Part shown: positions 6,962 to 47,512 of the stretch, in pieces
Numbering within the stretch: position 1 is the first letter of the stretch
Layout: each line of letters begins with the position of its first letter
Origin: Candidatus Levyibacteriota bacterium
Lineage (GTDB): Bacteria; Patescibacteriota; Microgenomatia; Levybacterales; UBA12049
Assembly: GCA_027459745.1 (NCBI GenBank)
Contig: DAIDHL010000001.1
Coordinates: 168,290-232,289, forward strand
Reading direction: 5' to 3'
Length of the DNA: 64,000 nucleotides
Program-made: the position numbers and the translations under genes
Notes under the pieces: model-generated
Told to the model about the DNA's origin: nothing
The model's database searches: none
The model's input: the letters and a program-made list of their open reading frames with translations, nothing else

Positions 6962-6962
6962 T

Positions 6963-10094: not shown

Positions 10095-10097
10095 AAT

Positions 10098-11747: not shown

Positions 11748-11802
11748 TGGACTTAAATAGCATAAGTCATTTATAAGTAGTTATGCAAGGTTTTCTTTTT
11801 AT

Positions 11803-11830: not shown

Positions 11831-11867
11831 ACCTATTATCTCAGAAAGAATTGAACCAATTGACCCA

Positions 11868-14545: not shown

Positions 14546-14578
14546 AAAGTCTAATGAAGTTTATAGTATGTAGAGTTT

Positions 14579-15331
14579 ATGGACGAGCAGACCAAACAAA
14601 AATATCATCAGCTTTTCCTTCAATCAGCCAAGCAATATTTATTCAGTTTTAATACTAATCTAGAAAATTATTTACGTAGTCAGACAGAACAAGCTGCTGT
14701 CGAGCAAATGTTTATTGCAGTGCATTCTATCAGAAGCCAATGCAACGTAATGGGATATCGTGATTTAGGCAACGAGTGCGCTGAGGTTGAGCAAATGCTA
14801 AGACCGCTTAGGGATTCTTCTACCCCGTTGACTTCTGAACAACTGAATTATCTACAGGATAGAGGTAAAAAAATCAATTTGATGTTAGGATCAATTGCCA
14901 TACCAAATACTGAGGTCTTAGTAAATGACCAACAACAAGGCCAGGAATCTCCAGTACAAAATAAAAAAATACTACTGGTTGAAGATGATCATTTTTTTCA
15001 ACAGTTCTATGCTTATAAGTTAAAGCAGAGTGGTTTTATAGTAGAAGAGGCCGCTAACGGTGATGAAGGAATAAAAAAACTAACTACTTTTTTGCCTAAT
15101 ATAGTTTTGTTGGATTTGATTATGCCTGTGAAAGATGGCTTCGAGTTTTTAGCTGAGAAGAAACAGTCTGAATCACAACAAATTGTAAATATTCCAGTGA
15201 TTATTTTTTCAACTCTAGGACAGGAAAAGGATATTCAAAGAGCTAAAGATTTAGGAGCCAATGACTATGTAAATAAGAGTTTTTTTGATTACTCCACACT
15301 TATTCAAAAAGTCCAGCAATTTTTAGGTTAA
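14579..15331 (+). CDS. Hpt-like / receiver (REC) domain response regulator
   Basis: C-terminal REC (KKILLVEDD...LLDLIMPVKDGFEFL...ANDYVNK); N-terminal 110 aa has an Hpt-like AVHSIRSQ (HxxKG-like) helix. Confidence 0.65.
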   Translation: MDEQTKQKYHQLFLQSAKQYLFSFNTNLENYLRSQTEQAAVEQMFIAVHSIRSQCNVMGYRDLGNECAEVEQMLRPLRDSSTPLTSEQLNYLQDRGKKINLMLGSIAIPNTEVLVNDQQQGQESPVQNKKILLVEDDHFFQQFYAYKLKQSGFIVEEAANGDEGIKKLTTFLPNIVLLDLIMPVKDGFEFLAEKKQSESQQIVNIPVIIFSTLGQEKDIQRAKDLGANDYVNKSFFDYSTLIQKVQQFLG

Positions 15332-15440
15332 GATAGATATTGGGTTAGAGTTCAGCCTTCTTTAAACACCTTGTATATACTCTTTTATATTTACTTATTA
15401 TTTAGATCTCCTCTGGTGACAATTTCAGCAATTTGTTATT

Positions 15441-17150: not shown

Positions 17151-18202
17151 AACTAGCAGATATATCAATATCAACAAATGAAGAGATAAATTTAATTAGC
17201 AACATGTCTACCATGTTGAAGGCTGGTATTCCGATTATAGAAGTCATAGACTCGCTTTTAGAAGATTCAAAAGGACATCTCAAAATTGTTTTAGAAACAC
17301 TGCGTGCTGATTTGATGCAGGGTAAAAGAATTTATACATCTTTCTCCAAATTCCCTAAGATCTTCGATAGTGTAACAATTAATCTTATTCGTGCAAGTGA
17401 AGAAGCTGGGACGCTAGATGTTTCTTTGGAAGATTTAAAAATAAACATTCAAAAACAAATGGAATTTAATGATCAGATAAGAGGGGCTATGATTTATCCT
17501 GTTTTTATTATATTTGTCTTTTTTAGCGTGATGATAGTGATATTAATTGTAGTTATCCCTAAAATTTCCACCGTATTTTCTAGTTTGGGGGCTACCTTGC
17601 CTTTGCCAACGCAGATTATGATTACAGCCTCAAATTTTTTGCTTAAAAATACGCTTGAAGCTGTTACTAGCGCTGTTTTAATAACAGCTTTTATTCTTTA
17701 TATGATTCGTAAACAGAAAAAATTCTTAATAAGAATGCTCTTAAGTCTTCCTGTTATCTCCAAACTTGGTAAAGAAATAGATATTGCCCGTTTTACCCGG
17801 AGTTTGTATTTGTTACTTAATTCTGGTTTACCCATAGGCAGTGCTTTAGCGTTGGCAGGTTCAGTGGTAAATAAAAAAGATGTTGCACTGGCCATTGAGC
17901 ATTCCAGACAAGTTGTTTTAGCGGGTAAAAATTTATCCGAAGGGTTTAAATCTCATAAAGATATTTTTCCCAGTATGATTATTAAAATTACTGAGGCAGG
18001 GGAGAGAAGTGGTTCCTTAGATAAATCTATGCAGGATGCCTCGATTTATCTGGATTATCAAGTTTCACAGACCCTGAAAACAGTAACAGCATTAATAGAG
18101 CCTGTGATGTTGGTAGTAGTTGGTTTGTTAATTGGTGGCATGATGTTAGCGATCATTGCGCCAATGTACGGAATGATCAGCCAGATCAGCAACCCGCAGT
18201 AA
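17147..18202 (+). CDS. pilC: type IV pilus platform protein PilC (GspF family)
   Basis: Two GspF-like repeats, polytopic membrane protein, coupled to the pilB stop. Confidence 0.8.
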   Translation: MKLADISISTNEEINLISNMSTMLKAGIPIIEVIDSLLEDSKGHLKIVLETLRADLMQGKRIYTSFSKFPKIFDSVTINLIRASEEAGTLDVSLEDLKINIQKQMEFNDQIRGAMIYPVFIIFVFFSVMIVILIVVIPKISTVFSSLGATLPLPTQIMITASNFLLKNTLEAVTSAVLITAFILYMIRKQKKFLIRMLLSLPVISKLGKEIDIARFTRSLYLLLNSGLPIGSALALAGSVVNKKDVALAIEHSRQVVLAGKNLSEGFKSHKDIFPSMIIKITEAGERSGSLDKSMQDASIYLDYQVSQTLKTVTALIEPVMLVVVGLLIGGMMLAIIAPMYGMISQISNPQ

Positions 18203-28345: not shown

Positions 28346-29314
28346 ATGAAAAATAATAATTTCTGGAAAGATTTACCAAGACCATTTTCAGCATTGGCTC
28401 CTATGGATGGAGTAACTGATGCTGTTTTCCGACAAATTATTGTAGAAACAGGCAAACCTGATGTATTGTTCACTGAATTTACCAATTGTGACGGGTTACT
28501 ATCTAGTGGAAAGGATAAAGTTATTCAAAGATTGAAGTTTAAGTCAAATGAACATTTTATAGTCGCACAGATTTGGGGAAACGATCCTAAAACTTTTTAT
28601 GAATCTGCCAAGATTTGCGTAGATTTAGGTTTCGATGGAATTGATATAAATATGGGTTGTCCAGTGCGAGACATCACACAGCATGGAGCATGTTCTGCTT
28701 TGATTGATAATCCTAAATTGGCGGGAGAGATTATTCAGGCTACTAAAGACGGAGCAGGAAAATTACCAGTAAGTGTAAAAACTCGTGTAGGGAGAAAAAT
28801 GGAAATTATTGATCAGTGGATAAGGTTTTTACTTCAGCAGGACTTGCCTGCATTAACTATACATCTGCGGACAGTAGCCGAAATGTCAAAAGTGCCCGCT
28901 CACTGGGAATACATGGCCAAAATAGTTAAATTGCGAAACGAGATTGCACCCCAAACATTACTGGTTGGGAATGGCGATGTACAAAATTTAGTAGATGGAG
29001 AAGAAAAGACACAAGTATATAGAATTGAGGGGATAATGTATGGAAGAGCTGTTTTTAGTGATCCTTGGTTATTTAATAAATCAATAGATAAAACAACAAT
29101 TACAGTTAAGCAACGGCTAGTACTTTTTCAACAACATTTAGATTTATTTAGAAGTGAGTATGGAGAAACGACAAATTATGCCATCCTTAAAAAATATTGT
29201 AAAATATACATGAATAGTTTTTCCAATGCAGCTGAGTTGAGAGAGAAAATCATGTTAACGAAAAGCTTAACCGAAATGGAACAAGTCACTAAAGATATGA
29301 TAAAGAGCTTATAA
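28346..29314 (+). CDS. tRNA-dihydrouridine synthase
   Basis: ALAPMDGVTDAVFRQI...VAQIWGNDPKTF...GFDGIDINMGCPV Dus signature with catalytic Cys. Confidence 0.85.
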   Translation: MKNNNFWKDLPRPFSALAPMDGVTDAVFRQIIVETGKPDVLFTEFTNCDGLLSSGKDKVIQRLKFKSNEHFIVAQIWGNDPKTFYESAKICVDLGFDGIDINMGCPVRDITQHGACSALIDNPKLAGEIIQATKDGAGKLPVSVKTRVGRKMEIIDQWIRFLLQQDLPALTIHLRTVAEMSKVPAHWEYMAKIVKLRNEIAPQTLLVGNGDVQNLVDGEEKTQVYRIEGIMYGRAVFSDPWLFNKSIDKTTITVKQRLVLFQQHLDLFRSEYGETTNYAILKKYCKIYMNSFSNAAELREKIMLTKSLTEMEQVTKDMIKSL

Positions 29315-32457: not shown

Positions 32458-33351
32458 TTAAGACTGATGAATATTAAGAAGTACTTTTCCATCTTGTATA
32501 CCTAAAGTGCTATTTGGATGAGTACTCACATAAGCATTAAGAGTATTGGCAAGCCTTTGCTTCATGGTCTTTATAGATCCTTCTACTCCCGATTCTAAAG
32601 TTCTCTTTCGTAATGATTCAGAAATTCTTTGTTTACTGTCACGTTCGTATAAGATTCCACCCATCTCTTCATAGGGAGATTGTAAGAGGTATTCTCTTAG
32701 CGAACGAAACATATGATCATATTCTGCAATTCCAGTAGAATGTCCTTCTAAACCAAAGTAGCATAAGTAGCTTAAATGAGGATCTTTATATGGGGAATAA
32801 CGTTCTGTGCCATCGGTTTCCATGTTTTTTCTAATTCTTTCAGAATAGCCTGTTGCGAATTGTTCGTCTCTTTCTATAAGATATACAGCTATTTTTGAGA
32901 GTACTTGTGAAGGAACATTCGGCTCCAATTGTTTATCTGTATCTTCCTCAGTATCTGGCGTCTCTCCATTAAAATAAGCCATCATATTTTTAATTTCCAT
33001 CTGAGTATCATTTTCGATTGTTTCAACACTAAACGGCATTTCAGTATCAGGATCGGGGTTATGTAATGATATTTTTTTTGTCAGCGTAGTGCTGCTGTCT
33101 TGTTCACCCGGATTTAGAAAATTTATGAGAACTTTTTTACTAGATTCAAAGAGTTCTGCAGCAAAAGTCTCGTCTATTTTCCATTCAGGATGAAGTTGAT
33201 GAATATATTGAAAAAACAAGTCTTGCAAATCAGGATAACCTTGTGAAAATCGGAAAGAAGAGAACAATAGTTTGGTGGCATACTGAATGGATAATTCTCC
33301 TTTTTGTCGTTCATCTGAAGAACTACCGTCAATCTGAGCTTCGCCTGGCAT
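32458..33351 (-). CDS. hypothetical acidic protein
   Basis: 297-aa ORF, no motif recognised. Confidence 0.4.
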   Translation of the reverse strand: MPGEAQIDGSSSDERQKGELSIQYATKLLFSSFRFSQGYPDLQDLFFQYIHQLHPEWKIDETFAAELFESSKKVLINFLNPGEQDSSTTLTKKISLHNPDPDTEMPFSVETIENDTQMEIKNMMAYFNGETPDTEEDTDKQLEPNVPSQVLSKIAVYLIERDEQFATGYSERIRKNMETDGTERYSPYKDPHLSYLCYFGLEGHSTGIAEYDHMFRSLREYLLQSPYEEMGGILYERDSKQRISESLRKRTLESGVEGSIKTMKQRLANTLNAYVSTHPNSTLGIQDGKVLLNIHQS

Positions 33352-33399
33352 ACGTAAATATTATAATATTATTGATAGTATATCAACAATTCAAAAATT

Positions 33400-33567
33400 T
33401 CGGTCAAACTTACATAGATCCTAAGCCGGGGGTTCTTCGTGTGCTGCTTGGTTCGATATGTCCCGCTGGGTTGGCATGGTCATATTCTGGCTTATCGAAT
33501 CGCGAGTTTAACAAGCAATATCAGGCTATTCTTGATATAGGAAGTGGTAATTTTGCAATGAGTACCC
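33400..33567 (+). repeat. direct repeat copy A (168 bp; 164/168 identical to 39820-39987, last 131 bp perfect)
   Basis: Direct sequence comparison; mismatches only in the first 40 bp. Confidence 0.9.
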
Positions 33568-33656
33568 TCAATGCAAATACCATCGAACCGCTTTTGCTTT
33601 GGATCTTTAACTTAATGCATGTTTTTGGGTATAAAGAAAGAGCCTATCGTGTATAA
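33400..33656 (+). pseudogene. 3' remnant of a large serine recombinase gene (no start codon)
   Basis: Encodes ...GQTYIDPKPGVLRVLLGSICPAGLAWSYSGLSNREFNKQYQAILDIGSGNFAMST..., nearly identical to the C-terminus of the recombinase at 38484-40016; upstream part of ORF 33243-33656 overlaps the opposite-strand gene. Confidence 0.6.
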
Positions 33657-33668: not shown

Positions 33669-33992
33669 ATGAGTACCAAGGCAGATAATGAGATATTGCC
33701 AGAAGATAAGATACAACTCAATCAGGATCAAGAAAATTTGATTACGTTGGCCTTCGCAAAACAGATACCAGTTGACGATGCTGAATTCATTGAAAAGATA
33801 CAAAAACAGGACAGGCCATCAACTGGTGCTTATATTGAGATTGAGGAGTATTTTACAAAGAAATATGGCGAAGAATTTGGGAGAATCTTTCTTGCTACAA
33901 TTACTGGTGGAGAAGCAAGCTACAAAAATACAATAGAGAAGCTTGAGAAAGAACGAGCTCAGAAAAGAATACGTCTTGGAAATAGTAATTAG
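33669..33992 (+). CDS. hypothetical protein
   Basis: 107-aa acidic ORF inside the element. Confidence 0.4.
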   Translation: MSTKADNEILPEDKIQLNQDQENLITLAFAKQIPVDDAEFIEKIQKQDRPSTGAYIEIEEYFTKKYGEEFGRIFLATITGGEASYKNTIEKLEKERAQKRIRLGNSN

Positions 33993-34213
33993 TCAGGAAA
34001 AATATCTGATGCTTTCACCTTTAATGCCTTAATCACTCTATAGATGTTCTGGAAGGTTGTATTGATCTCTCCCCGTTCAATTTTTGCGTAATAATTACCT
34101 TTCATGCCAATCGCCTTAGCCACTTCCTCTTGAGTAAAGTTACCATTTACTCTTGCGTGACGTATCTTTTCGCCGAATTCTTTTTGAGCTTTATGATTAA
34201 CCTTGGTTGCCAT
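33989..34213 (-). CDS. XRE-family HTH transcriptional regulator
   Basis: FGEKIRHARVNGNFTQEEVAKAIGMKGNYYAKIERGE helix-turn-helix. Confidence 0.8.
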   Translation of the reverse strand: MATKVNHKAQKEFGEKIRHARVNGNFTQEEVAKAIGMKGNYYAKIERGEINTTFQNIYRVIKALKVKASDIFPD

Positions 34214-34695: not shown

Positions 34696-37131
34696 CTAAA
34701 AAATTTCAGATATTTTTTTTGCTGATTGAAGTAGCTCATATTTTGTATATCGTGGACTTTGTAGATTAATTCTGGGATTGTCTAAATGTATTGGGTTAAT
34801 TTGATAGATATCAGACAAAAATAGTTTAAATTTGCCGGTTTTCTCGTAAGGTTCTATGTTCTTAATTTTACCCATCCATCTTATTACTTTATTTGGTGCT
34901 ACTTCATATAATGCAAGATATTTGAGCTTCTTTTTTGCCTCGGGAGATAGTTTAACTGCCCACCAGGCATGCTGTTCAATAAATGCTCGGCTAAGACCGT
35001 CATTTTTTGTTGCGCAAATGATAGTATCATAATCTTTATCTATAGATTTAGCTACCCTAAAAACCTTCTTTTCAGGAATATGATCTTTTTGTACAATCTC
35101 AACTGGTTGTTTTGATTTTTCTAGTCTAGAGAATATTCTATCAAACCATTCGATCGCAGATTCCCCGTCTTTTCTAATCAACGGATCGCTATCTTTTGCA
35201 TGAGCTATATCATTACGATATTCCCTTAAATCAGTAAGCCTTTTTTGTAATTCTTCCTTAGAGCCGAAAATTGCTTCAAATAGATTCCAGTTTTTTAGTA
35301 TAATCTTTTGATAATCTCCCACATCACAATAATTCAGATAATCTCTTGTAGAAAAGTCAGTAAGATTTTTATATGGATTACGCTTAAGCTCTGAAGCTAT
35401 TTTAATACTTACATTAACCTTAGTATCCTCAGGTATAGATGTATTCCAATAACCTTGATTTACTGATAATGCTGTTTGTATTGTATCTCTTAGTCTTACC
35501 TCAATCATATCTATCGCTTTTTTAGGATCATTTGATAGTAGCTGCATAATTCTGCCTCCAGTTACTTTTTTAAATTCTTCAAAAATATAATTGGCTCGTT
35601 CTAGGATGAATTGTTCATATCGATTATTTTCAACTGCTTGGCTATAAGGAATCATTTGCACTTTTAGTGTTTCTCCAAAATTTGGATTTTCCTTGCTATA
35701 AGTACTAAAATAATCGCTAGGCGCTTGTTTGGAAATCTCTTTATTAAGTTCTGCAGGGATGAAACAGAAGTTAGCGATTGAGTATTCACTATACTTTATA
35801 CCTTTTGATCTTGATTTTAGGAATTCTTTAGGAAATATATGATGTCTCTCAGCAAGGTTTATGCTTGCACATATGGAATCATCTAAAATAATATTATTAT
35901 TGTTTTTAAAATGCTTGGGACTTTTGCTGGCTAAAAGACAAAAGAAAACATTTCTAAGTGAGGATTTCGTTGTTATTTTTGTTTCGATAATTTCTTCTGG
36001 GGTAAGCGTAATTGGATAGTTAATTTCTACGTTGTCCTTTCCTTCAATAAAGCTGTCAAATATATCTTTTCGATCTTCCCACATGTGTGTATCACGTTGA
36101 CTACCGTATCTTTCGCTTAAGGAAGCTTTCCAAAACCATTCCTGAACTTTTTTGGTTACATTTTGGTTGAATGATGCTTTTGGATATTTATAATAAAGAT
36201 ATATAAGAAGAGAGAGAATTGCAGGGTATGGTAAAAATTCATATGTTTTTACTCCTAAATTTGCAGTAAGATGATCCACAGCTTTTTCTACAGATTGGCA
36301 TACTTTAGGCCATGCTGATTTAATCTCTTCTTTTTTAAGTTCAAATAAATATTTTTGGTTACAATATCCTTTAATAATTAACGCAATAGCTAATAATACT
36401 GGTTCTATTGGAATTTCTCCAAAAGATTTTTTGTCATTTATACTCTTACTTAAGGCCTCATACTTCTCTCGTATGTCAAAATCATCTCCCCACGTACTTG
36501 CGACAACGAGGTCAAAAACTGATAGTTTTTTGCCTCCTTGATTAATTCTTTCAAATATTTCAATCGCATCAGCGAGTTCTTTCTCTTTTACGCTAATTAC
36601 AGATAAAGGGTAATTAGCAAAAATTCCAGTCAGTTTTTGAAATATCTTTTTTCTTTCATCAGTCAAGTTCTTAAATATTTCTAAGGATGTTTCCTGACTA
36701 AAGATATCTCTTACAGAAGCAAAATGATTATCTTTTGTCTCTTCCTCGAAAAAAACCTCATCATCAAAATTAAAGCAGATATTACCATAATTAATGGTAT
36801 CTACTGTTAATCCATTAAACGTAACAAATAAAGCAGTCGCTCTTTGTTGTCCATCAAGAATGTATCTCAAATCTGAGTGGCCGTCTGGTTTTGGTAAATT
36901 TAATTCAGGGAAATCCTTATAAAAAAGATTATATTGTCTATCTGCGTCCCAAACAAAAAAACTTCCTATTGGATACTCTCTATATATTGAGTCTAGCAAG
37001 TCAATAATTTTTTTACGTCCCCACACGAATTTTCTCTGAAAACGCGGTATGCGGAGTGTTCCATTTGATATATCGTAAAGAAGATTAGATAATTTGTAAT
37101 TTGATTTTATTTCAATCTTAGATATTTCCAT
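34696..37131 (-). CDS. GmrSD-like nuclease: DUF262 (ParB-like) + DUF1524 (HNH/His-Me) + C-terminal HEPN-like RNx3H domain + unknown C-terminal module
   Basis: RIPRFQRKFVW...YPIGSFF...LDGQQRATAL (DUF262); ERHHIFPKEFL...NFCFIPAELNK (DUF1524); EYRNDIAHAKD (Rx4H); final 150 aa unassigned. Confidence 0.7.
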   Translation of the reverse strand: MEISKIEIKSNYKLSNLLYDISNGTLRIPRFQRKFVWGRKKIIDLLDSIYREYPIGSFFVWDADRQYNLFYKDFPELNLPKPDGHSDLRYILDGQQRATALFVTFNGLTVDTINYGNICFNFDDEVFFEEETKDNHFASVRDIFSQETSLEIFKNLTDERKKIFQKLTGIFANYPLSVISVKEKELADAIEIFERINQGGKKLSVFDLVVASTWGDDFDIREKYEALSKSINDKKSFGEIPIEPVLLAIALIIKGYCNQKYLFELKKEEIKSAWPKVCQSVEKAVDHLTANLGVKTYEFLPYPAILSLLIYLYYKYPKASFNQNVTKKVQEWFWKASLSERYGSQRDTHMWEDRKDIFDSFIEGKDNVEINYPITLTPEEIIETKITTKSSLRNVFFCLLASKSPKHFKNNNNIILDDSICASINLAERHHIFPKEFLKSRSKGIKYSEYSIANFCFIPAELNKEISKQAPSDYFSTYSKENPNFGETLKVQMIPYSQAVENNRYEQFILERANYIFEEFKKVTGGRIMQLLSNDPKKAIDMIEVRLRDTIQTALSVNQGYWNTSIPEDTKVNVSIKIASELKRNPYKNLTDFSTRDYLNYCDVGDYQKIILKNWNLFEAIFGSKEELQKRLTDLREYRNDIAHAKDSDPLIRKDGESAIEWFDRIFSRLEKSKQPVEIVQKDHIPEKKVFRVAKSIDKDYDTIICATKNDGLSRAFIEQHAWWAVKLSPEAKKKLKYLALYEVAPNKVIRWMGKIKNIEPYEKTGKFKLFLSDIYQINPIHLDNPRINLQSPRYTKYELLQSAKKISEIF

Positions 37132-37178: not shown

Positions 37179-37958
37179 CTACTCATCCACAATCTTCATC
37201 CAGTTTCCCCACGTATGCTTTGTACCAATCAAGGTATCTTTTGTAGTCACATAGATGCTAACTTCTCCCCATTCCTCTCGTAACACAGTACGAGCGCACC
37301 GCATCACTTTTTTCTGTTCATAGGAAGTCTGTGTAACAAGCAGAAGTGTAGGGAATGCTATCTTCATGACGTCTTCATCCCAAGTATCCGCACAAGTGAA
37401 ATATCTTCGAATTTTACTTTTAATAAATCGTTTAGGTATCTTTTCATCAAACAGTTCAAGAAAATAATATTTAGTCTTTGTCCCTTGCTTCGTTACAGAG
37501 AAATAGCCATCAGCTGGGGGTTGCGGAAGATCAACATAACTCGTGAGTTCTATCTTACTAAAAAATGAGACGTCTTTGTCTTGCTCCTTGTAATACTGCT
37601 TTAAAGAGTAAGCAATCTTAGCAATATCACAACAATGGATTTGAAACCGTTGACTCCGTTGCTTTTCTCGATACAGTTGTGACAATATATATGCCTCACA
37701 GTCCTTTTGTGATTTCAAAATCTTCGCTGCTTTACTGGATAAACAATATATTGCCGGCTTAGTACGATTGATAAATGAAGCTTTATCATAAAACTGAACA
37801 ATATATCCTTTATCTACTAAATCTTTAAGCCATTGCTGAATACGAGTAGGGAGTTTATGTTTTAAATAGAGTTGAATAGTTGGTGTATCTAAGAATCTGA
37901 ATTGGTAGAGTAAAAGCATGATAGCTAATTGTTTTTTTGTTATTTTAAATTCTGGCAT
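37179..37958 (-). CDS. Replic_Relax-like winged-helix protein (putative relaxase/replication-relaxation family), paralog of 61670-62434
   Basis: LYQFRFLDTPTIQLYL...IQQWLKDLVDKGYI N-terminus and clear similarity to the second copy (FVTTKD, YYFLELFDE/RYFLDYFDE). Confidence 0.5.
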   Translation of the reverse strand: MPEFKITKKQLAIMLLLYQFRFLDTPTIQLYLKHKLPTRIQQWLKDLVDKGYIVQFYDKASFINRTKPAIYCLSSKAAKILKSQKDCEAYILSQLYREKQRSQRFQIHCCDIAKIAYSLKQYYKEQDKDVSFFSKIELTSYVDLPQPPADGYFSVTKQGTKTKYYFLELFDEKIPKRFIKSKIRRYFTCADTWDEDVMKIAFPTLLLVTQTSYEQKKVMRCARTVLREEWGEVSIYVTTKDTLIGTKHTWGNWMKIVDE

Positions 37959-38483: not shown

Positions 38484-40016
38484 ATGGCTGGAGCTGAACT
38501 AACTAAACAAGCAATTATTTACATCCGAGTCTCAAGCGAAGAACAGGTTGAAAATTTTTCATTGGATACACAAGATGATATTTGCAGAAAAGAAGCAACT
38601 AGGCGAGGTTTTCAAATAATTGAAATCTTTCGGGAAGAAGGAAAGTCTGCAAAAACTATAACGGGCAGACCAGAGTTGATGAAGCTATTAGATTATTGTC
38701 GAAGAAACCGCAGACATGTTGATGCAGTATTTGTATACAGACTTGATCGTATATCTCGACAAACATCTGACTACTTAGCTATTCGAAAACGCTTGGCAGA
38801 TTATGGCATTTCCTTAATTTCAGCTAATGAACCTACTGGAAACTCCCCAACAGAGAAATTATTGGAAACAATTATTGCCAGTTTTGCTCAACATGATAAT
38901 GATGTTCGTTCAGAACGAACAAAAAATGGCTTACGCACAAGATTTCTTGCTGGTATGTGCACGGGCAAAGTGCCAATAGGATACGTTATGGAAGGCGGTT
39001 ATGCAGTAAAAGATAAAAATTTTGAAAATATGAAGAAAGCTTGGAATCTTATGGCAACAGGAACAAAGAGTCTTTCAGAAATGGCTGCGATTATGAATGA
39101 ATGGGGAATACGAAAAGTTGTTGCTGGTAAAGAGCATAAACTACGAATGCAAACAGTCGGTAGATTATTTAGACATAAATTTTATATGGGTGTTCTGACC
39201 TCTACAAAATATCCAGAAGAGATTCGAGGACAACATGAGGCAATGGTAACGGAAGAGCAATTTTATAAAGTACAAGCAATTATAGATGGCAGGAATGTCA
39301 GTGGGATGACTATTGGTAAGCGACTCAATGAGAACCCAGATTTTCCTTTACGACGAGTAATTAAATGTGGAAAATGTGGAGGAGTTTTATCCGGCGCTTG
39401 GAGTAAGGGGAGATCAAAACGATATGCTTACTATATCTGTAAAAACCGTTGTGGTGCTCCATCTATTGCTGTTAAAAAATTGGACGACTCACTCATACAA
39501 TACTTCCAAGATATTACGCCTACTAAAGATCAACTAGATGTATTTCTGATTGTGTTAAGAAAAATGTTTTATCAAAGCCTATCGGGGCTTCAAGCAAAAC
39601 GAGTGATAGCTCAAGAAGAAATATATAAGCTAAAACAAATGAGACAAAAGCTTGTAGAAAAAAATTTGGCAGGGGTCTATTCAGATGAGATATTTAAAGA
39701 GCAAAGGGTTATTATTGAAGACAAAATTGCTACTGCTGAAAGTATTTTAGGACAGACAATTTTTGATAAATACAATTTTGATGATGTCGAGAAATTTATG
39801 CGTGCAAAATTTAAGGATCTCGGTCAAACTTACATAGATTCTGAGCCTGGGGTTCGTCGTGTGCTGCTTGGTTCGATATGTCCCGCTGGGTTGGCATGGT
39901 CATATTCTGGCTTATCGAATCGCGAGTTTAACAAGCAATATCAGGCTATTCTTGATATAGGAAGTGGTAATTTTGCAATGAGTACCCCATCTGGGACGAT
40001 GTTCGTACCTATCTAG
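38484..40016 (+). CDS. large serine recombinase (resolvase/invertase N-domain + recombinase domain + zinc ribbon)
   Basis: AIIYIRVSSEEQ catalytic Ser motif, ...VYRLDRISR; CGKCGG...C zinc ribbon; 510 aa. Confidence 0.85.
   Translation: MAGAELTKQAIIYIRVSSEEQVENFSLDTQDDICRKEATRRGFQIIEIFREEGKSAKTITGRPELMKLLDYCRRNRRHVDAVFVYRLDRISRQTSDYLAIRKRLADYGISLISANEPTGNSPTEKLLETIIASFAQHDNDVRSERTKNGLRTRFLAGMCTGKVPIGYVMEGGYAVKDKNFENMKKAWNLMATGTKSLSEMAAIMNEWGIRKVVAGKEHKLRMQTVGRLFRHKFYMGVLTSTKYPEEIRGQHEAMVTEEQFYKVQAIIDGRNVSGMTIGKRLNENPDFPLRRVIKCGKCGGVLSGAWSKGRSKRYAYYICKNRCGAPSIAVKKLDDSLIQYFQDITPTKDQLDVFLIVLRKMFYQSLSGLQAKRVIAQEEIYKLKQMRQKLVEKNLAGVYSDEIFKEQRVIIEDKIATAESILGQTIFDKYNFDDVEKFMRAKFKDLGQTYIDSEPGVRRVLLGSICPAGLAWSYSGLSNREFNKQYQAILDIGSGNFAMSTPSGTMFVPI
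39820..39987 (+). repeat. direct repeat copy B (inside the 3' end of the serine recombinase gene)
   Basis: See copy A. Confidence 0.9.
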
Positions 40017-40086: not shown

Positions 40087-40578
40087 ATGTTAGATTTCTG
40101 GAAACGAAAACAAACAAAGGTTGTTTCAGTTTTGCTTACCTCAATTCTACATGATGAAACAACATTTTATCAAGCATTCTTAAAAGATTTACAAGCTGCA
40201 AAAAGAGAGGTCATCATTGAGAGTCCGTATATTACGAGTTATCGAATGCGGATGCTTTACCCAATCTTTGCAAAATTACTTCATCGAGGGATAAAAGTAT
40301 TTATCATAACTCGTCCTCCACAAGAGCATGACAGCGAAAAGATGCGTGCACAAGCAGAGATAGAAATTCGTCGCTTTGAACAAATTGGCATTCAAGCACT
40401 CCTTTGTGTTGGTAGTCATCATAGAAAGCTTGCAATGATTGATCGGAATATTTTATGGGAAGGTAGCTTAAATATTCTCTCTCAGTCATACAGTCGGGAA
40501 TATATGCGAAGAATTGCCAGTCACCAAATCACACAGGATACCTTTATATTTTTAAAATTTGATAAGATTATTTATTGA
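40087..40578 (+). CDS. PLD-family (single HKD) nuclease, Nuc-like
   Basis: GSHHRKLAMIDRNILWEGSLN contains HxKx4D; 163 aa as in plasmid Nuc endonucleases; strong RBS AAGGAGG. Confidence 0.7.
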   Translation: MLDFWKRKQTKVVSVLLTSILHDETTFYQAFLKDLQAAKREVIIESPYITSYRMRMLYPIFAKLLHRGIKVFIITRPPQEHDSEKMRAQAEIEIRRFEQIGIQALLCVGSHHRKLAMIDRNILWEGSLNILSQSYSREYMRRIASHQITQDTFIFLKFDKIIY

Positions 40579-42314: not shown

Positions 42315-42926
42315 TTAAGGATCACCTTGTAAAAACGTCCTCGGATTCACAGGAATCCCATACACATTTATTTGGAAATGGACATGCGGCCCCGTTGCAT
42401 TCCCCGTTTCTCCTTCATACCCAATAACATCACCTGTATCAACAGTTGCTCCCACTTTCGTATTCAGTGCTTCCATGTGTCCATAAAGACTCGTGACATG
42501 ATCACCGTTGTCTATAATCACATGTATACCATACCCCGAGTTATCCTCTCCTGCATAAATCACCGTGCCTTTCGCGAATGGATGAATCGGGTCACCTTGT
42601 TCTCCGTTTGGGTCTGCAATATCAATGCCCGTATGCAGAATTTGGTACGGCGGATCCGGTTGTCCAAACTCCAATGTTACGACTCCCTGCATCGGCCACG
42701 CCATTGCAGCAGTGAAATCTGTAATAGTTCCATCAAGATTATGAATCTCAACCGTATTTGTCTTTGTATCAAGAGTAACGAGTTTATCCGATACAGATTG
42801 AAAACCGAAGCTGGTTATTACGATGATGCCAATAAGCGGAAGCAGGAGAATAAAGAGGAACATACCGGCAACAATTTTTAATTCATTGCGAAAGGAGAAA
42901 AGGGTAAAAGCAGCAAAAGGTAGCAT
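42315..42926 (-). CDS. M23 family (LytM) peptidase with N-terminal TM, likely T4SS-associated cell-wall hydrolase
   Basis: HTGIDIA...GTVIYAG...GYGIHVIIDNGDHVTSLYGHM...GETGNATGPHVHFQI. Confidence 0.8.
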   Translation of the reverse strand: MLPFAAFTLFSFRNELKIVAGMFLFILLLPLIGIIVITSFGFQSVSDKLVTLDTKTNTVEIHNLDGTITDFTAAMAWPMQGVVTLEFGQPDPPYQILHTGIDIADPNGEQGDPIHPFAKGTVIYAGEDNSGYGIHVIIDNGDHVTSLYGHMEALNTKVGATVDTGDVIGYEGETGNATGPHVHFQINVYGIPVNPRTFLQGDP

Positions 42927-42929
42927 TGG

Positions 42930-44762
42930 TTAGAGATATATCTCCTTTGGATCTGTTGTCAGCAACGGATGTTCTTTTTCGCTTGCGACTACTTTGACAG
43001 CCACATGATTTTGGTCGGCAATAATCAGTGCCTCGCCTCTATCGCAGGTAAGGAGGAATTGTTGTTCATATTCACTTAAATGAAATTCTTCAGTCACTTT
43101 TTTTATTGTGGTTGTGTCCTGACGCATCAGAATGCGCAAAGAGGACTGTGACGCAATCGCTCGTCCATAATCTTGTCTGAGAAAATCTTGGGCTTGCTGG
43201 GAGATAATTGTAACACCAAGATAATATTTTCTGGCGCGCCGAACCAATCCAGCGATAAATCGTGCACTTTCTTCATGTTCAAGTAACATCCATCCTTCAT
43301 CAATGACGAGAAGGCGTTTCTGCGGATGAGACTTCACTTGAGCATCAACAAAGTTTGCAATCACCACCATCATAATTTGCCGTATGGATTCATGCAGGTC
43401 TTTAATATCAAAAATAACCAATCGGTTATCAAGCTGAATATTGGTTTGTTCATTAAAAACGTTTGCGAGTGAACCTTTGACAAACCGCTCGAGCCGATGA
43501 CAAATATCTTTTTGTTTCATAACTCGAAGTGTCTGGTATAAATCCTCAATAAGTGGGAAATCTTCTTTGGCTTTTCCTTTTTTCTTCTCACTCATGGTAT
43601 ATCCAAAGTTTTTGTATGTTTGTAATATTGCCTTATCCATCACGGCTCGTTCTTCAGGTGATAAACTCCCAACCATTAACGAAATAATTTCAGTGAGATT
43701 TTGGATGTGTTCTGCCAGGGCATTGTCGCCAGTAAATGACACAGTTGAAAAATCAAACGGATTTATCTTTTCTTTACTGGAACTGGATAATTTGATGAAT
43801 GTTCCTTTCACAGATTTTGCCAGTTGTTTATATTCTCCCTCGGGGTCAATGACAATCACTTTCGTCCCCTGCATGAGATGACGAAGGATTTCTACTTTTG
43901 TGGTATAACTTTTCCCACTGCCAGATTGAGCAAAGATTATAGAGTTTGCGTTATTAAGAGAGAAACGATCAACAATAACGAGTGAGTTATTTGATTTATT
44001 TATCCCATACAAAATACCTGACTCTTGAACGAGTTCTGAAGAAACAAACGGAAACGTAAGTGCTGCACTGGAACTATCTAGGTTTCGTCTCTGCATCAAT
44101 ATATTTTCCCCTCGCGGCAAAATAGATTGAATTCCTTCAAGCTGTTGAAACGTTGCAGTTTTGATGTAGAACAAACGACTGGACATAACTGTTTCAAGAA
44201 TTTTAGTGATTTTATTCAACTCCGCTAACGAATCGGCGGTGATTGCCATGTAAATAGAAATTTGAAATAGTTTCTCTTTGCCGCGTTGAATGTTATCTTT
44301 CAACTGAATTGCAGAATCTAATGGGTCAGTGATTTCAGATCCAACAATTCTACCGTTTTTAATCATTGCCCGTTTTGTTGCTTCAAGTTCGGTGATCTTG
44401 CGGTTTAATTTTGGCAAAGCCAGTAGGGGATCAACTTGTTCAATATGGTATGAGATATCTATGTTGTAATTGAAGTTGATCAGCATGTTCAGCCAGCCAG
44501 TACCTGCAACATACGGATAGCCTGAGATAAAAAGTGTACGAATATATGTATCACCCATTTGAATGTATGATGAACTTTCTTCAAGTCCTGAGTACGACAG
44601 GAGATCAATTTGGTCTTGCTCGCCAAAATTAAATTGGAAGGACTTCTTGAGCAACTCCTTCTTCTTGTTTTTTCGTTTTAGCTTCTTACGCAATTGCTTT
44701 GCAAGTTTTTGCATATCAACTGTGGGTAATTTTTGTAATGGTAGTTGGGATAAGTTAAACAT
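42930..44762 (-). CDS. VirB4-family conjugation ATPase, C-terminal 610-aa portion
   Basis: Walker A IFAQSGSGKSYTTK, Walker B RLLVIDEGW; starts with ATG overlapping the stop of the upstream ORF by 8 nt. Confidence 0.8.
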   Translation of the reverse strand: MFNLSQLPLQKLPTVDMQKLAKQLRKKLKRKNKKKELLKKSFQFNFGEQDQIDLLSYSGLEESSSYIQMGDTYIRTLFISGYPYVAGTGWLNMLINFNYNIDISYHIEQVDPLLALPKLNRKITELEATKRAMIKNGRIVGSEITDPLDSAIQLKDNIQRGKEKLFQISIYMAITADSLAELNKITKILETVMSSRLFYIKTATFQQLEGIQSILPRGENILMQRRNLDSSSAALTFPFVSSELVQESGILYGINKSNNSLVIVDRFSLNNANSIIFAQSGSGKSYTTKVEILRHLMQGTKVIVIDPEGEYKQLAKSVKGTFIKLSSSSKEKINPFDFSTVSFTGDNALAEHIQNLTEIISLMVGSLSPEERAVMDKAILQTYKNFGYTMSEKKKGKAKEDFPLIEDLYQTLRVMKQKDICHRLERFVKGSLANVFNEQTNIQLDNRLVIFDIKDLHESIRQIMMVVIANFVDAQVKSHPQKRLLVIDEGWMLLEHEESARFIAGLVRRARKYYLGVTIISQQAQDFLRQDYGRAIASQSSLRILMRQDTTTIKKVTEEFHLSEYEQQFLLTCDRGEALIIADQNHVAVKVVASEKEHPLLTTDPKEIYL

Positions 44763-45348
44763 AGGTATTTGCTAAGAGCATATCAATTGTTTGACCTTTC
44801 AATGCCTGTGTTTTGATTTGAGATGGATTGTAAAAGGAATAAAAAAGATCGAGTAATTCAAGACTTGTTACTTGTCGTGCTTTCATCCCTAATTTTTCTA
44901 TTCCTTTACTCACAATATCTCGTTGCAAGTGAAGATGCTCTTTGACTGTTGCAAAATCGTTCTGTTTTCCGATGTGACGATAAGGAATAACGACGTAAAA
45001 TCGGCGGGAAAGAATTTTATTGCCGGACACCATTTGTTTGATAAAGGAACAATAGGTATCAATTTGCTCTTTGTACATTGTTTCTTTCTCCTGTAATTTT
45101 TTGGCTTTAATCTGTTCCACATAGGAATCAATATCAACTTCACGAACTCTGATTAGCATTTGCAAAGGACAAGGCAATGAGTTTAAAAAGTTTTGAAAGC
45201 TATCAATCAGCACATCTTGCTCTTCCTCACTTTTTAATTCAAAATTAATACTCGATGTTTCAAGCACCAAACGATATTCATTATTTGGTAATACTAAGAT
45301 ATTATCCTTTACTTCTTTAATCTGAATTTGTCGGCGGCTGCTCGCCAT
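44755..45348 (-). pseudogene. VirB4 N-terminal (CagE/TrbE/VirB-type) domain as a separate 197-216-aa ORF, so split or frameshifted virB4
   Basis: YRLVLETSSINFELKSEEEQDVLIDSFQNFLNSLP...RRFYVVIPY aligns to the first 200 aa of VirB4 proteins; combined length 826 aa equals intact VirB4. Confidence 0.5.
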
Positions 45349-45349
45349 C

Positions 45350-45865
45350 TTATTTGATTTGTTCAAGACCAACATCGAGTCCTCCTTTCTTATTTGTTTT
45401 GACAAAAAATGTAAACGCAGGATTTTGCAATACAGTTTCCAGTCGTATCATGTCTGCCCCTTCTAATACGGGAACTACCGTTTTCTCTTTGGCGGTTGAC
45501 CTCATCTTCTTAAAAATTTTGAATGGTTTCTTTTCAATTTTCGGCAGATACATCTCACGTAAGTAGGTCTCATTTTTATTCAGCACATACCATCTTGGTC
45601 GAAGATTATATCGAAGTAAAATACCTGCCCAATTCAAGACAACCTTTCCTTTTATCCGCAGCGAAAGAGTGACACAAATGATCGCAACAATAAACGCGAT
45701 AACAATTTTTATCACACTCACATGGAGTTTCGGTGGAAGAAGAATAAATTCGACTGTTGTCCAGAAGACAGGAACCATTAATAAAAGAAGTTGTGTCAGA
45801 TTTAAACTCCCTGCAATTCGGTCTTCAACTGTCGTAATTTGAGCTGGAATCACTCTTGTTCTCAT
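45350..45865 (-). CDS. small two-TM membrane protein, VirB3-like (putative)
   Basis: Position immediately upstream of virB4, hydrophobic hairpin LLLLMVPVFWTTVEFILL...VIKIVIAFIVAIICV. Confidence 0.35.
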   Translation of the reverse strand: MRTRVIPAQITTVEDRIAGSLNLTQLLLLMVPVFWTTVEFILLPPKLHVSVIKIVIAFIVAIICVTLSLRIKGKVVLNWAGILLRYNLRPRWYVLNKNETYLREMYLPKIEKKPFKIFKKMRSTAKEKTVVPVLEGADMIRLETVLQNPAFTFFVKTNKKGGLDVGLEQIK

Positions 45866-47157
45866 GCGTTGATATACCTCCGTTTTAGTTTCGCTTCAGC
45901 ATTGTCATCTTCGGTATACCCAGCGTTTGACCCCTCTTGTTTGTGTGTCGTCATCGTGTTGACCATCTGACTTCCCATATGAATAAGAGCGCTCAGTCGG
46001 GATGTATAAAACATCATTTGAAACATCCAGGTAGGAATTCGCAGAAGTGTCAAGAAAAGCCCGATTGCAATAACTATTGAAAGAAGAGAACTATCGGGAT
46101 TATCTGGCAACGCGAGGAAAGAGGACGCAAGTTGAATCACAACGACATGAACAAAGATCATGAAAACAGTGACAACGTATCCTTTGACCGCTGCTTCGGC
46201 GAAATCTGAGGTTTTCGGTATTGCCCACATCAGAAATATGAAAGGAGAAAGCACACCGGCAAGGGCAACAAGAATGAGGCGGACGATGTACATAAATAAC
46301 AATATGATGGCCACAATGAGAAAGATAACGAAAAAGATAAGCGTAATTAATTTTGTATTGCCTGTTAAGAGACTCACGGGATTAATTGCATTGACCACCC
46401 ATGCATGATCCAACCCTCCGGTTGTATTAATAACTTCCTTGACAAGAGCATTACATGTTGTGATGACGTAATCACAAAGAAACAAAGAGACATTCGCACC
46501 AAGGAAGGATAATCCAATTCTCGGCAATAAATGTTTGAGTTCTATTTCCTCAAACCCAAAGGTTGATGCAGACATGAAATGTAATCCAAGTAGTGCAACA
46601 ACGACAACAAAGAGTGAATCAACAATTCCTAGACTAATTGCCCAGAAATGAAAGACAACAGAATTTGTGAGAAGACTTGGTGTCGTGGTGAGATAGCTAA
46701 TGATTGCATTCACAATAGGTTGTGTAGCGCTTTGTACTACATCCTGCAATAAGCCAATGACGGCGTTAATAAGGACTTGCGCGACTCCATCGTTGGGTGT
46801 TTGCGTAGCAAGTGGTGAGAGCGTAAGTGCTTGCGTTGTGGTACTTGCAGTGGGGCTAAGTAATGCGCCTTGCAGAAGGGAGATAACAACATTTGCTCCA
46901 AGAACAAGAGCTAATCCGATGACGGCATTTCTGATCGTTTTCTTGGCGTTTTCTAACGCTTCCGGATGACCGGTTGAGGTCATGTAGTGATAGCCGCCTT
47001 TGATTAAAAAAAATGCCGCCGAAGCGGACGCGAGAAGAGTAATCAGTTGCAACGTATCATTCGTGTAGTTGCTCATATCCGTTCCTACTGCAAACACAGG
47101 AGGAACGACCATAAGATATGTAATAGCTCCGAAAAGAGCATAGAAAGTCTTTTTCAT
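45862..47157 (-). CDS. polytopic membrane protein: N-terminal VirB2/TrbC-like pilin domain fused to VirB6/TrbL-like domain
   Basis: Signal peptide MKKTFYALFGAITYLMVVPPVFA; GGYHYMTSTGHPEALENAKKTIRNAVIGLALVLGANVV paralogous to the adjacent pilin-like gene; more than 6 further TM segments; start moved to MKK at 47157 (RBS GGAG). Confidence 0.55.
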   Translation of the reverse strand: MKKTFYALFGAITYLMVVPPVFAVGTDMSNYTNDTLQLITLLASASAAFFLIKGGYHYMTSTGHPEALENAKKTIRNAVIGLALVLGANVVISLLQGALLSPTASTTTQALTLSPLATQTPNDGVAQVLINAVIGLLQDVVQSATQPIVNAIISYLTTTPSLLTNSVVFHFWAISLGIVDSLFVVVVALLGLHFMSASTFGFEEIELKHLLPRIGLSFLGANVSLFLCDYVITTCNALVKEVINTTGGLDHAWVVNAINPVSLLTGNTKLITLIFFVIFLIVAIILLFMYIVRLILVALAGVLSPFIFLMWAIPKTSDFAEAAVKGYVVTVFMIFVHVVVIQLASSFLALPDNPDSSLLSIVIAIGLFLTLLRIPTWMFQMMFYTSRLSALIHMGSQMVNTMTTHKQEGSNAGYTEDDNAEAKLKRRYINA

Positions 47158-47170
47158 ACTATAAATACTC

Positions 47171-47512
47171 CTACTGAGCAGCCTGTGCTGTACCAAAGGC
47201 AGTCGTTGCAAGATCTGAAACGATGTGCGAGAGTACAAATGCACCAAGCACAACAGCTAAACCAACAGCTGAGTACATAATTGTTTTTTTTGATCGATCG
47301 AGCTGTTCAGGATTTCCTGAACTTGTAATGTAGCCAATTCCTCCCATGACGAAGAACCCGACTGAGATAGCAGCTGCAAGAGAAACGAGTACTTGCACAA
47401 TACTTTGAATAAATGTCTGAATTTTTGTGACATCTGCAGAAGCTGCAAAGGCTGGAGTTACAACGATAAGAGAAGTTATTAGAACTGCTTGTAGGTAGAT
47501 AATTTTTCTCAT
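47171..47512 (-). CDS. VirB2/TrbC-like conjugative pilin
   Basis: Signal peptide, then GGIGYITSSGNPEQLDRSKKTIMYSAVGLAVVLGAFVL two-helix pilin architecture. Confidence 0.6.
   Translation of the reverse strand: MRKIIYLQAVLITSLIVVTPAFAASADVTKIQTFIQSIVQVLVSLAAAISVGFFVMGGIGYITSSGNPEQLDRSKKTIMYSAVGLAVVLGAFVLSHIVSDLATTAFGTAQAAQ

Follow-up and report, generated by a model that had tools for sequence, protein, structure and literature searches.

An open reading frame (ORF) in the window, the whole 64,000-nucleotide stretch of DNA analysed here, encodes an 811-aa protein that is probably an anti-phage enzyme of four parts: an NTPase switch, a DNA-cutting domain, an RNase-like HEPN domain and a reader-shaped tail. 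The best explanation, to which a probability of about 0.6 was assigned, is a GmrSD/BrxU-type defence enzyme (type IV, modification-dependent restriction) made as one chain and extended by two modules. From the N-terminus, the protein shows a DUF262 domain whose DGQQR pocket is intact, a helical linker like that of BrxU, the motif set of a His-Me finger, a HEPN domain that retains its Rx4H motif and, at the C-terminus, a PUA-like barrel (Table 1). In the proposed mechanism, the tail would detect foreign nucleic acid, with a modified base in the DNA of a phage or plasmid as the most probable signal. DUF262 would bind and hydrolyse nucleotide and, like its counterparts in BrxU and SspE, would thereby gate a change in conformation or oligomeric state that licenses DNA cutting or nicking by the His-Me finger. 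Two protomers would pair through their HEPN domains to form an RNase site, which may act as a second, abortive-infection-type effector or as a fallback if DNA cleavage fails. We infer that the protein would cleave DNA and RNA, hydrolyse NTP and bind a ligand. The original prediction of a GmrSD-like nuclease with a HEPN motif and a C-terminal module was supported on all points open to computation.

Table 1. Positions of the domains of the 811-aa protein and of neighbouring features in the window
Feature	Coordinates	Strand	Details
Whole ORF	34696..37131	-	DUF262 - helical linker - His-Me finger - HEPN - PUA-like tail
DUF262 / GmrSD_N ParB-like NTPase domain	36499..37089	-	residues 15-211; FQRKFVW 31-37, LLDS 45-48, DGQQR 93-97
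Alpha-helical linker domain, as in BrxU	35887..36498	-	residues ~212-415; helical, high pLDDT
His-Me finger (DUF1524-like) region	35557..35886	-	residues ~416-525; E428-R-H430-H431-I-F-P434 ... N454-F-C-F-I-P-A-E-L-N463
HEPN domain, Swt1-like	35110..35544	-	residues ~530-674; R639-N-D-I-A-H644
Linker, low confidence, poorly conserved	35029..35109	-	residues ~675-701
PUA-like (ASCH/YTH/EVE-like) beta-barrel tail	34699..35028	-	residues ~702-811
Xre-type (HTH_3) regulator, similar to control proteins of R-M systems	33989..34213	-	context
Upstream gene, weak Replic_Relax match	37179..37958	-	Pfam PF13814 E 2.2e-5, 25.1 bits vs 25.3
Large serine recombinase (Resolvase + Recombinase + Zn_ribbon_recom)	38484..40016	+	mobile-element context
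Direct repeat of 180 nt, left copy	33388..33567	+	displaced 3' end of recombinase gene; 95.6% identity to 39808-39987
Direct repeat of 180 nt, right copy	39808..39987	+	inside 3' end of serine recombinase gene

Domain architecture and conserved motifs

The gene is a single ORF of 811 aa plus stop with an ATG start (ORF listing); translation of the same interval on the plus strand contains many stops. The limits originally predicted were correct, with the strand (minus) left unstated. An ORF of 811 codons in DNA of 33% G+C, with at least 769 homologs in the databases, is a genuine gene. Every peptide that had been quoted was found in it: FQRKFVW and DGQQR (Table 1), ERHHIFPKEF at residues 428-437, NFCFIPAELNK at 454-464, LTDLREYRNDIAHAKDSD at 632-649, KKVFRVAKSIDKDYDTIICATKND at 688-711, HAWWAVKLS at 721-729 and YLALYEV at 738-744. 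No NCBIfam family matched the protein. Residue invariance was determined from an alignment of 55 diverse homologs and motif counts from the 120 best homologs; all candidate catalytic residues were invariant in the former, and nearly every sequence of the latter set carried them.

The predicted N-terminal DUF262 domain was confirmed by Pfam (PF03235, GmrSD_N, E 1.5e-30) and by the invariance of D93-G-Q-Q-R97 in the family alignment. This domain aligns to residues 10-112 of BrxU (PDB 7p9k), including the BrxU motifs RLFDS and DGQQR, and the family profile aligns with BrxU as far as residue ~321. The domains are separated by an alpha-helical linker, and the overall fold resembles that of a solved member of the GmrSD/BrxU/SspE type. 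A PADLOC search, one of the checks proposed with the original prediction, returned PDC-M55C (E 3e-48), PDC-M34B on the HEPN region and HEC-05 (E 9e-45 over residues 120-524), the last of which is BrxU (10.1101/2024.01.29.577857). NTP-stimulated, modification-dependent cleavage or nicking of DNA is predicted for the 811-aa protein.

The HEC-05 alignment spans the His-Me finger region, which also aligns weakly to BrxU residues 501-576. H430, H431, F433, P434, N454 and N463 are invariant in the family alignment. The central DUF1524 domain that had been proposed thus stands on motif, profile and fold; the label is used on this basis because Pfam GmrSD_C/DUF1524 found nothing in the protein, even with the cut-off relaxed to E≤1. 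Pfam GmrSD_C also matched 0 of the 55 relatives, and this silence is a point against the best explanation; membership of the Pfam DUF1524 family is not claimed. Matches to GmrSD_C in shorter relatives were sub-threshold only, the example being a protein of 31% identity (L071) that scored 22.3 bits against a threshold of 23 over the homologous stretch.

A helical-bundle HEPN fold was recovered around the R-N-x3-H motif, so that the absence of such a fold, named in advance as the outcome that would speak against the prediction, was not seen. The motif lies on the last core helix at R639-N-D-I-A-H644, slightly beyond the 'about 620-640' originally given, and is nearly invariant: R639 and H644 do not vary in the family alignment, N640 occurs in at least 90% of sequences, and 119 of the 120 best homologs carry the full pattern. 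The bare pattern is weak evidence alone, with 0.03 occurrences expected per protein of the same composition. Pfam HEPN_Swt1 (PF18731) matched with E 8.9e-6 and 26.4 bits, 1.1 bits under its gathering threshold of 27.5; it matched 18 of the 55 relatives at E≤1e-3 (best 1.8e-7), and a precomputed match exists for three relatives. A HEPN-only profile searched against PDB sequences gave chance matches to designed helical bundles and nothing else. A dimeric composite HEPN site with RNase activity is predicted.

The HEPN domain might instead be a dimerisation or regulatory scaffold with no RNase role, in which case the protein would be a plain BrxU-type modification-dependent DNA endonuclease. This is improbable. 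BrxU and SspE are indeed intertwined dimers (PMC10952713), HEPN domains form dimers and are in some cases catalytically inactive (PMC3710099), and the HEPN_Swt1 score falls under its threshold. However, the conservation of R639, H644 and, nearly, N640 among relatives of 29-45% identity would not be expected of a domain with a structural role only, and the DUF262+HNH+HEPN fusion was classed as 'active' by Anantharaman et al. (PMC3710099).

The C-terminal tail and its exchange among relatives

Similarity within the family stops ~35 residues past the HEPN motif, and residues 675-721 have pLDDT values below 50 in the full-length model, which positions the tail with little confidence (pLDDT 30-60). 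Modelled and searched by fold, as had been proposed, the tail gave a PUA-like beta-barrel with a pLDDT of 91, a fold recovered by two methods. The model resembles ASCH, YTH and EVE domains, including known reader domains, which is in line with the reader-like C-terminal module originally suggested. Within the tail, W723 and Y742 are invariant, and D702, T703, G712, K737, Y738, A740, P746, I759, K767 and Y795 occur in at least 90% of sequences. From this conservation pattern, W723, Y738, Y742 and Y795 are candidate aromatics for a modified-base pocket.

Sequence searches placed the tail in no described family. The Pfam search of the C-terminal region that had been advised returned the sub-threshold HEPN_Swt1 match and neither EVE/PUA nor SRA; at E≤10, no Pfam family matched the tails of the query and three homologs of the same class, and a tail profile found no significant match among PDB sequences. 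The tail is without sequence-level membership in Pfam EVE, ASCH, YTH or SRA. It represents a family without Pfam annotation and is the sole unannotated part of the 811-aa protein. This family comprises 1,111 clusters. Its partners are GIY-YIG, VRR-NUC/PD-(D/E)XK, HSDR_N, Mrr_cat and GmrSD_N (DUF262) nucleases, often with RAMA, and the tail is also found standing alone in defence-type neighbourhoods. Rare EVE-GmrSD fusions have been noted (PMC7641849).

The modelled fold alone fixes neither DNA as against RNA nor the reading of a modified base. The best structural match is ZmASCH, an RNA-acting protein, and YTH domains are RNA readers. These observations count against the best explanation, as do the lack of a sequence-level link between the tail and any reader family, the uncertain position of the tail in the full-length model and the HEPN_Swt1 score below its threshold. 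The protein may be mainly RNA-directed, with the tail as a binder of RNA (perhaps tRNA or RNA that is modified), HEPN as the main effector RNase and DUF262/His-Me as an NTP-gated regulator or secondary nuclease, so that the outcome would be abortive infection, not restriction. This is unlikely, at perhaps one chance in five. The same tail is mostly fused to restriction DNA endonucleases (GIY-YIG, Mrr_cat, HSDR_N, VRR-NUC) and to RAMA, and the His-Me residues are no less invariant than those of HEPN. The structural matches also include DNA readers: THYN1 bound to 5mC DNA and the reader domains of three modification-dependent nucleases, namely VcaM4I, archaeal McrB (McrB-N with m5C DNA) and PD-T4-3.

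The DUF262-His-Me-HEPN core is widespread, occurring in Patescibacteria, where it is common, in Proteobacteria and in haloarchaea. In relatives this core of 670 aa is constant while the tails differ: DUF5655/DUF1801-like, DUF4268, DUF4357/RAMA, or none. We infer from these sequence comparisons that the tail may be an exchangeable specificity module on a constant core. The tail is absent in 18 of 120 relatives; the core must therefore work without it, which is a point against the best explanation. A broader proposal, which is tentative and has the odds against it, is that the barrel family (~1,100 clusters, absent from Pfam, in many restriction nucleases) consists of modification readers. In the 811-aa protein, detection of modified foreign nucleic acid by the barrel would be linked to restriction by the His-Me DNase, with abortive infection by the HEPN RNase as a fallback, and specificity would be reprogrammed in nature by tail swapping on the 670-aa core.

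Genomic context of the gene and its relatives

The genome that carries the 811-aa gene is probably that of a member of the Patescibacteria, as judged indirectly from Dus homologs. The gene appears to travel as cargo, with a serine recombinase gene and genes for type IV secretion nearby. The latter lie at 42930-47512, an M23 peptidase gene is also present in the region, and housekeeping-type genes lie to the left of ~32.4 kb and to the right of ~47.7 kb. At 0.33, G+C content is only slightly below that of the surroundings (~0.36). Neither att sites nor an empty site could be found, the sole repeat being the duplicated 180-nt recombinase 3' end. A scan for promoters and terminators found no enrichment over shuffles. 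Among the neighbours, the only PADLOC matches were an HTH 'control protein' of generic type and a PLD domain.

Relatives are often located in R-M or defence islands. HsdR lies directly upstream of a relative in three loci, HsdM and large methyltransferase-like genes lie near others, and one homolog with the same tail (P0002) is situated between Mrr-like, type IIG R-M and Pycsar genes. No conserved neighbour gene was detected in 84 loci, in which only generic HTH and recombinase genes recurred from among the neighbours in the window; the commonest neighbour clusters of relatives occurred in at most 5 of 31 loci. A multi-gene system was rejected because no partner gene recurs among the relatives' loci, and the 811-aa gene appears to act alone. 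A phage collection yielded partial, DUF262-level matches only.

The locus itself raises the alternative that the protein serves the mobile element and not the host, as an addiction or exclusion module or as a ParB-like DNA-handling factor of a conjugative element. The gene would then be co-transcribed with the Replic_Relax-like gene, which lies on the same strand across a gap of 47 nt; the nearby recombinase and type IV secretion genes, and the ParB/Srx fold of DUF262, are consistent with such a role. It is nevertheless very improbable. The Replic_Relax-like gene has no PADLOC match and is beside no homolog in the 84 loci, the relatives are in R-M operons and defence islands, not plasmid partition loci, and the motifs of both the nuclease and the HEPN domain are conserved. 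Among solved structures, the closest relatives are restriction enzymes, and the grouping with housekeeping ParB-like proteins that would have told against the original prediction was not seen. A housekeeping ParB or partition role was rejected, given the nearest relatives and their contexts.

Comparison with known systems

GmrSD/BrxU/SspE enzymes are studied models of NTP-gated, modification-sensing restriction, and we know of none among those studied that carries a second nuclease. To our knowledge, no enzyme of the DUF262-HNH-HEPN family appears to have been characterised experimentally. This family puts a DNase and also a probable RNase under a single NTPase switch and displays natural exchange of sensor tails; it would make a compact test case for coupling sensing to two different effectors. 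It occurs commonly in Patescibacteria, a group about whose defence repertoire little is known. Epigenetic tools could gain new modification-specific binding domains from the tail family, as they did from EVE/SRA-type enzymes.

BrxU, a GmrSD-family type IV restriction enzyme that switches between dimer and monomer, is among the closest known systems. The same three-domain core as in the 811-aa protein is found in the VNG7073-type fusion, 'ParB (DUF262) with HNH + Swt1-like HEPN', listed by Anantharaman et al. in 2013 (Table 1 of PMC3710099; HEPN 'active') and known from that line of a comparative-genomics table alone. Its plasmid copies in Halobacterium salinarum, annotated as separate fragments, match residues 21-664 at 33-35% identity, and other haloarchaeal genomes also carry the core (L031, L037). 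Unlike the 811-aa protein, these haloarchaeal proteins are without the PUA-like tail (L031 has 674 aa). The ParB(DUF262)-HNH-HEPN core is thus already catalogued and fits well-known modular themes, so that the conceptual surprise is modest.

PUA-superfamily readers (the EVE-HNH enzymes VcaM4I/TspA15I, YTH-like McrB-N and PD-T4-3) are kin of the tail at the level of fold. The tail differs from them in that its best fold match is ASCH, not EVE, in having no sequence membership in a curated family and in its C-terminal position after the HEPN domain. The combination of DUF262 and HEPN is shared with PD-T4-2 (Vassallo et al. 2022), a validated defence system with a RiboL-PSP-type HEPN (PMC10952713). 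However, PADLOC PD-T4-2_A matched only weakly and locally (E 2.8e-5, ~36 residues of DUF262), as did Pfam HEPN_RiboL-PSP (E 2e-3). The 811-aa protein was not assigned to PD-T4-2: that system consists of two proteins without DUF1524/His-Me, whereas the present one is the product of a single gene with His-Me motifs and a Swt1-like HEPN domain. Overall, it is a solid, moderately interesting variant of a catalogued core.

Domain architecture of the predicted nuclease

The target is one long ORF in the ORF listing, opening with ATG on the minus strand, and the plus-strand translation of the same stretch is riddled with stops. All peptides quoted in the original prediction, which had given no strand, were present in the minus-strand translation: FQRKFVW (residues 31–37), DGQQR (93–97), ERHHIFPKEF (428–437) and NFCFIPAELNK (454–464), with LTDLREYRNDIAHAKDSD at residues 632–649 and the tail strings within 688–744. 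The R-N-x3-H motif exists as proposed but lies at residues 639–644, slightly beyond the 620–640 claimed. The protein combines four domains (DUF262, His-Me finger, HEPN and C-terminal tail) with conserved candidate catalytic residues.

Pairing of DUF262 with a DUF1524 His-Me finger had been predicted. The first domain was confirmed by a Pfam GmrSD_N (DUF262) match over residues 15–211 (E=1.5e-30), and the His-Me motif by its invariant residues, but the expected GmrSD_C/DUF1524 match was absent from Pfam searches of the query, even at E≤1, and of 55 family members (0 of 55); NCBIfam likewise gave no match to the query. Positions invariant in the family alignment are D93-G-Q-Q-R97, S48 (the counterpart in the alignment of the serine in BrxU RLFDS), H430, H431, F433, P434, N454 and N463, and a regular-expression count over the best 120 of at least 769 homologues gave the same picture. 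Shorter, HEPN-less relatives have a sub-threshold Pfam GmrSD_C match over the homologous NYHHFFP...NITIVDDYLNKR stretch, reaching 22.3 bits (threshold 23) in a 539-aa Terribacillus protein (31 % identity over residues 14–539). Relative to the Pfam-defined DUF262-DUF1524 type, the DUF262 is present, and on the DUF1524 side stand the motif set of the target and the sub-threshold match of its shorter relatives. On sequence grounds, the His-Me finger of the family appears to be real but divergent.

PADLOC, proposed as a check, matched the query to PDC-M55C (3e-48), HEC-05 (9e-45; query 120–524 against profile 173–593 of 600) and PDC-M34B (6e-13; query 539–646), and weakly to SspE, PD-T4-2_A and Csx1/Csm6. 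HEC-05 is BrxU (Payne et al., 10.1101/2024.01.29.577857), and BrxU (7p9k) was the sole significant sequence relative among solved structures, with E=1.5e-10 in a single-sequence search and 4.9e-23 with a 55-sequence family profile. With that profile SspE was marginal (0.05), and NFCFIPAELNK...Y aligned weakly to the latter half of the BrxU His-Me finger (501–576).

The claim of a Swt1-like HEPN domain held up. HEPN_Swt1 matched residues 594–647 (E=8.9e-6; 26.4 bits, 1.1 bits below the Pfam gathering score), with weaker Pfam matches to HEPN_RiboL-PSP and DUF6548 over the same stretch, and HEPN_Swt1 was found at E≤1e-3 in 18 of 55 family members. HEPN proteins were among the structural matches, with figures of 9.2 for PbAbiF, 7.8 for AF0298, 7.6 for AbiA, 7.3 for Csm6, 7.0 each for a HEPN toxin and the yeast Swt1 C-terminal domain, 6.7 for sacsin HEPN and 6.0 for SO_3166. 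R639 and H644 are invariant in the family alignment and N640 occurs in 90 % or more of its sequences, with the regular-expression count again in agreement; a HEPN domain that is non-catalytic is considered improbable, and the HEPN assignment itself stands.

The exchangeable C-terminal tail

Similarity shared across the family ends about 35 residues past the HEPN motif, beyond which tails are exchanged as modules. Among the best 120 of at least 769 homologues, 67 carried one common class with a weak Pfam DUF1801 match, 22 carried DUF5655, five (P0001, P0002, P0003, P0038 and P0042) had the tail of the query, seven formed one pair and five singletons, and 18 (protein length ~665 aa) had no tail; the remaining protein, without the anchoring motif, was left unclassed. 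Pfam recognised other tails as DUF5655, DUF4268, DUF4357 and RAMA, and gave no match to the query-class tails at E≤10.

A profile built from the five query-class tails retrieved 74 proteins, mostly free-standing and of 110–215 aa, in none of which Pfam recognises a domain. An exhaustive HMM search gave 1,111 clusters (50 % identity, E≤1e-3), in which the domain is usually C-terminal. The tail had no sequence-level match in the PDB. The structure model and fold search suggested for this region gave a confident beta-barrel with short helices (56-sequence alignment; pLDDT 91, pTM 0.84). Its fold matches were ZmASCH (8.8), the YTH domains of Mmi1, YTHDC1 and YTHDC2 (8.0–8.2), PH1033 (7.9), AF2351 (7.8), VcaM4I (6.9), THYN1 with 5mC DNA (6.5), the Thermococcus gammatolerans McrB N-domain with m5C DNA (6.3) and PD-T4-3 (6.1). 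Foldseek concurred, with ZmASCH first (E=6e-4, probability 1.0, TM 0.60), then VcaM4I, MJECL36, DrmA and YTH domains. In ten longer proteins the tail is fused to GIY-YIG with RAMA/DUF4357, VRR-NUC/PD-(D/E)XK, HSDR_N with or without RAMA, Mrr_cat, GmrSD_N, a protein kinase or an IS66 transposase; in one (P0197) Pfam recognised no partner domain. Fusions of this kind are the pattern expected of a specificity domain of modification-dependent nucleases. Fold (PUA-like) and architecture (nuclease fusions) therefore support the suggestion that the tail may be a modified-base reader. Because ASCH/YTH-like tails and HEPN domains both point toward RNA, an RNA-centred system was also considered, and is judged unlikely.

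Free-standing tails of 115–132 aa (L002/L003, 6001–6399; L001, 6001–6348) neighbour HsdM, Hypoth_Ymh (a HEPN family), SIR2_2 and a Gp49/HTH toxin–antitoxin pair, and for another the neighbours are a Y1 transposase, a HEPN protein and an HTH gene. Action in trans is also possible for the domain.

Genomic setting and distribution of the family

Features of the window around the target
Feature	Position	Remark
Housekeeping-type genes	left of ~32.4 kb	Dus (28346–29314), GT2, amino-acid kinase
137-aa ORF	33243–33656	without recombinase 5' part
Left repeat copy	33388–33567	displaced fragment in 137-aa ORF
Xre-type HTH gene	33989–34213	left of target
Unassigned 134-aa ORF		left of target
Target	34696–37131	minus strand, 811 aa
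Weak Replic_Relax match	47 nt upstream	same strand as target
Large serine recombinase	38484–40016	
Right repeat copy	39808–39987	final ~60 codons of recombinase gene
PLDc_2 nuclease-like protein	40087–40578	163 aa, just downstream of recombinase
Type IV secretion/conjugation-like block	42315–47512	M23 peptidase, VirB4/TraG P-loop ATPase, PrgI-like, two T4SS_pilin (PF18895)
VirB4/TraG P-loop ATPase	42930–44762	
TraC_F_IV-like piece	44755–45405	216 aa, 8-nt overlap with ATPase gene
YibE/F, CsoR-like, permease genes	right of ~47.7 kb	

As to the predicted mobile-element setting, recombinase and type IV secretion-like genes lie close by, and G+C is slightly lower at the locus (0.33) than around it (~0.36); the target may therefore plausibly be carried on an integrative/conjugative-type element. 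That its function serves the element is regarded as very unlikely. Generic HTH and recombinase genes are the only window neighbours that recur next to homologues, and PADLOC found no defence-system partner among the neighbours.

Several neighbours have features of their own. The two repeat copies are direct and 180 nt long (95.6 % identity), and enclose 6.42 kb with the HTH gene, target, Replic_Relax-like gene and recombinase; tandem accretion of two related elements, or a partial duplication, could explain them. In PADLOC the PLDc_2 protein resembles MkoC and DrmC in their C-terminal PLD parts, and its candidate roles are a plasmid Nuc-type nuclease and other defence/anti-defence cargo. The TraC_F_IV-like piece and the ATPase are possibly a split or frameshifted VirB4. 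The Dus protein has best matches at 77–79 % identity, and its nearest named relatives are Patescibacteria/Ca. Levybacteria (55–59 %), which points to a Patescibacteria host and makes a Microgenomates-type candidate-phyla-radiation genome the probable source of the window.

The query has at least 769 matching proteins in the database, and at least 508 loci lie in species-representative genomes. They occur in many Patescibacteria (Amesbacteria, Gottesmanbacteria, Woesebacteria, Chisholmbacteria, Woykebacteria), in Gammaproteobacteria, Atribacterota, Chloroflexota, Actinomycetota and Planctomycetota, and in archaea including Halobellus, Halorubrum and Methanofastidiosia. Plasmids of Halobacterium salinarum hold a copy matching residues 21–664 (33–35 % identity) that is annotated in fragments. 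On plasmid PHS1 (NC_010366.1, 5944–8499; L085) it comprises three CDSs (218-aa DUF262, 67-aa hypothetical and 465-aa hypothetical), appears disrupted and lies near an AbiEi/AbiEii pair.

Relatives lie in defence-type neighbourhoods. No neighbour gene was universally conserved in 31 homologue loci; recurrent ones were type I HsdR (directly upstream at three loci), HsdM, large methyltransferase-like proteins and a ~250-aa protein. P0002, which has the same tail, sits in a dense defence island (L004, Logan SRR22388055 contig, 4374–17239) with an Mrr_cat nuclease, a second GmrSD_N protein directly downstream, an Eco57I/N6_Mtase type IIG enzyme and a Pycsar pair (Guanylate_cyc and PycTM).

A large sister group of 520–560-aa proteins (loci L038–L084, e.g. 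L071 Terribacillus, L039 Marinoscillum and L040 Flavobacterium) matches only query residues ~5–525 (29–36 % identity), with DUF262, linker and His-Me finger and without HEPN or tail. Set against this group, the HEPN-bearing family looks like an extension of the BrxU-like lineage.

Predicted mechanism and relation to known systems

The favoured model, given a probability of about 0.6, is an NTPase-gated His-Me DNase with a HEPN RNase and a PUA-like specificity tail. By analogy with BrxU, GmrSD and SspE (PMC10952713; 10.1101/2024.01.29.577857), DUF262 would bind and hydrolyse NTP, controlling oligomeric or conformational state, and the His-Me finger would cut or nick DNA. Two HEPN domains would pair to form an Rx4-6H RNase site, as HEPN biology suggests (PMC3710099), an arrangement that would naturally suit a dimeric BrxU-like scaffold. 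The tail, from its fold and fusion partners, would recognise a foreign nucleic-acid feature, most likely a modified base, and so set specificity.

The DUF262-HNH-HEPN core has been on record computationally since 2013, when Table 1 of Anantharaman et al. listed a Swt1-like HEPN fused to 'ParB (DUF262) with HNH ... (VNG7073), active' (PMC3710099); the H. salinarum copy appears to be this example. The literature searched contained neither experiments on the three-domain core nor a description of this tail family; rare EVE-GmrSD fusions are mentioned (PMC7641849). The validated system PD-T4-2 combines DUF262 and HEPN (PMC10952713) and is without a His-Me domain. The target is homologous to BrxU/GmrSD-type enzymes and is predicted to work alike.
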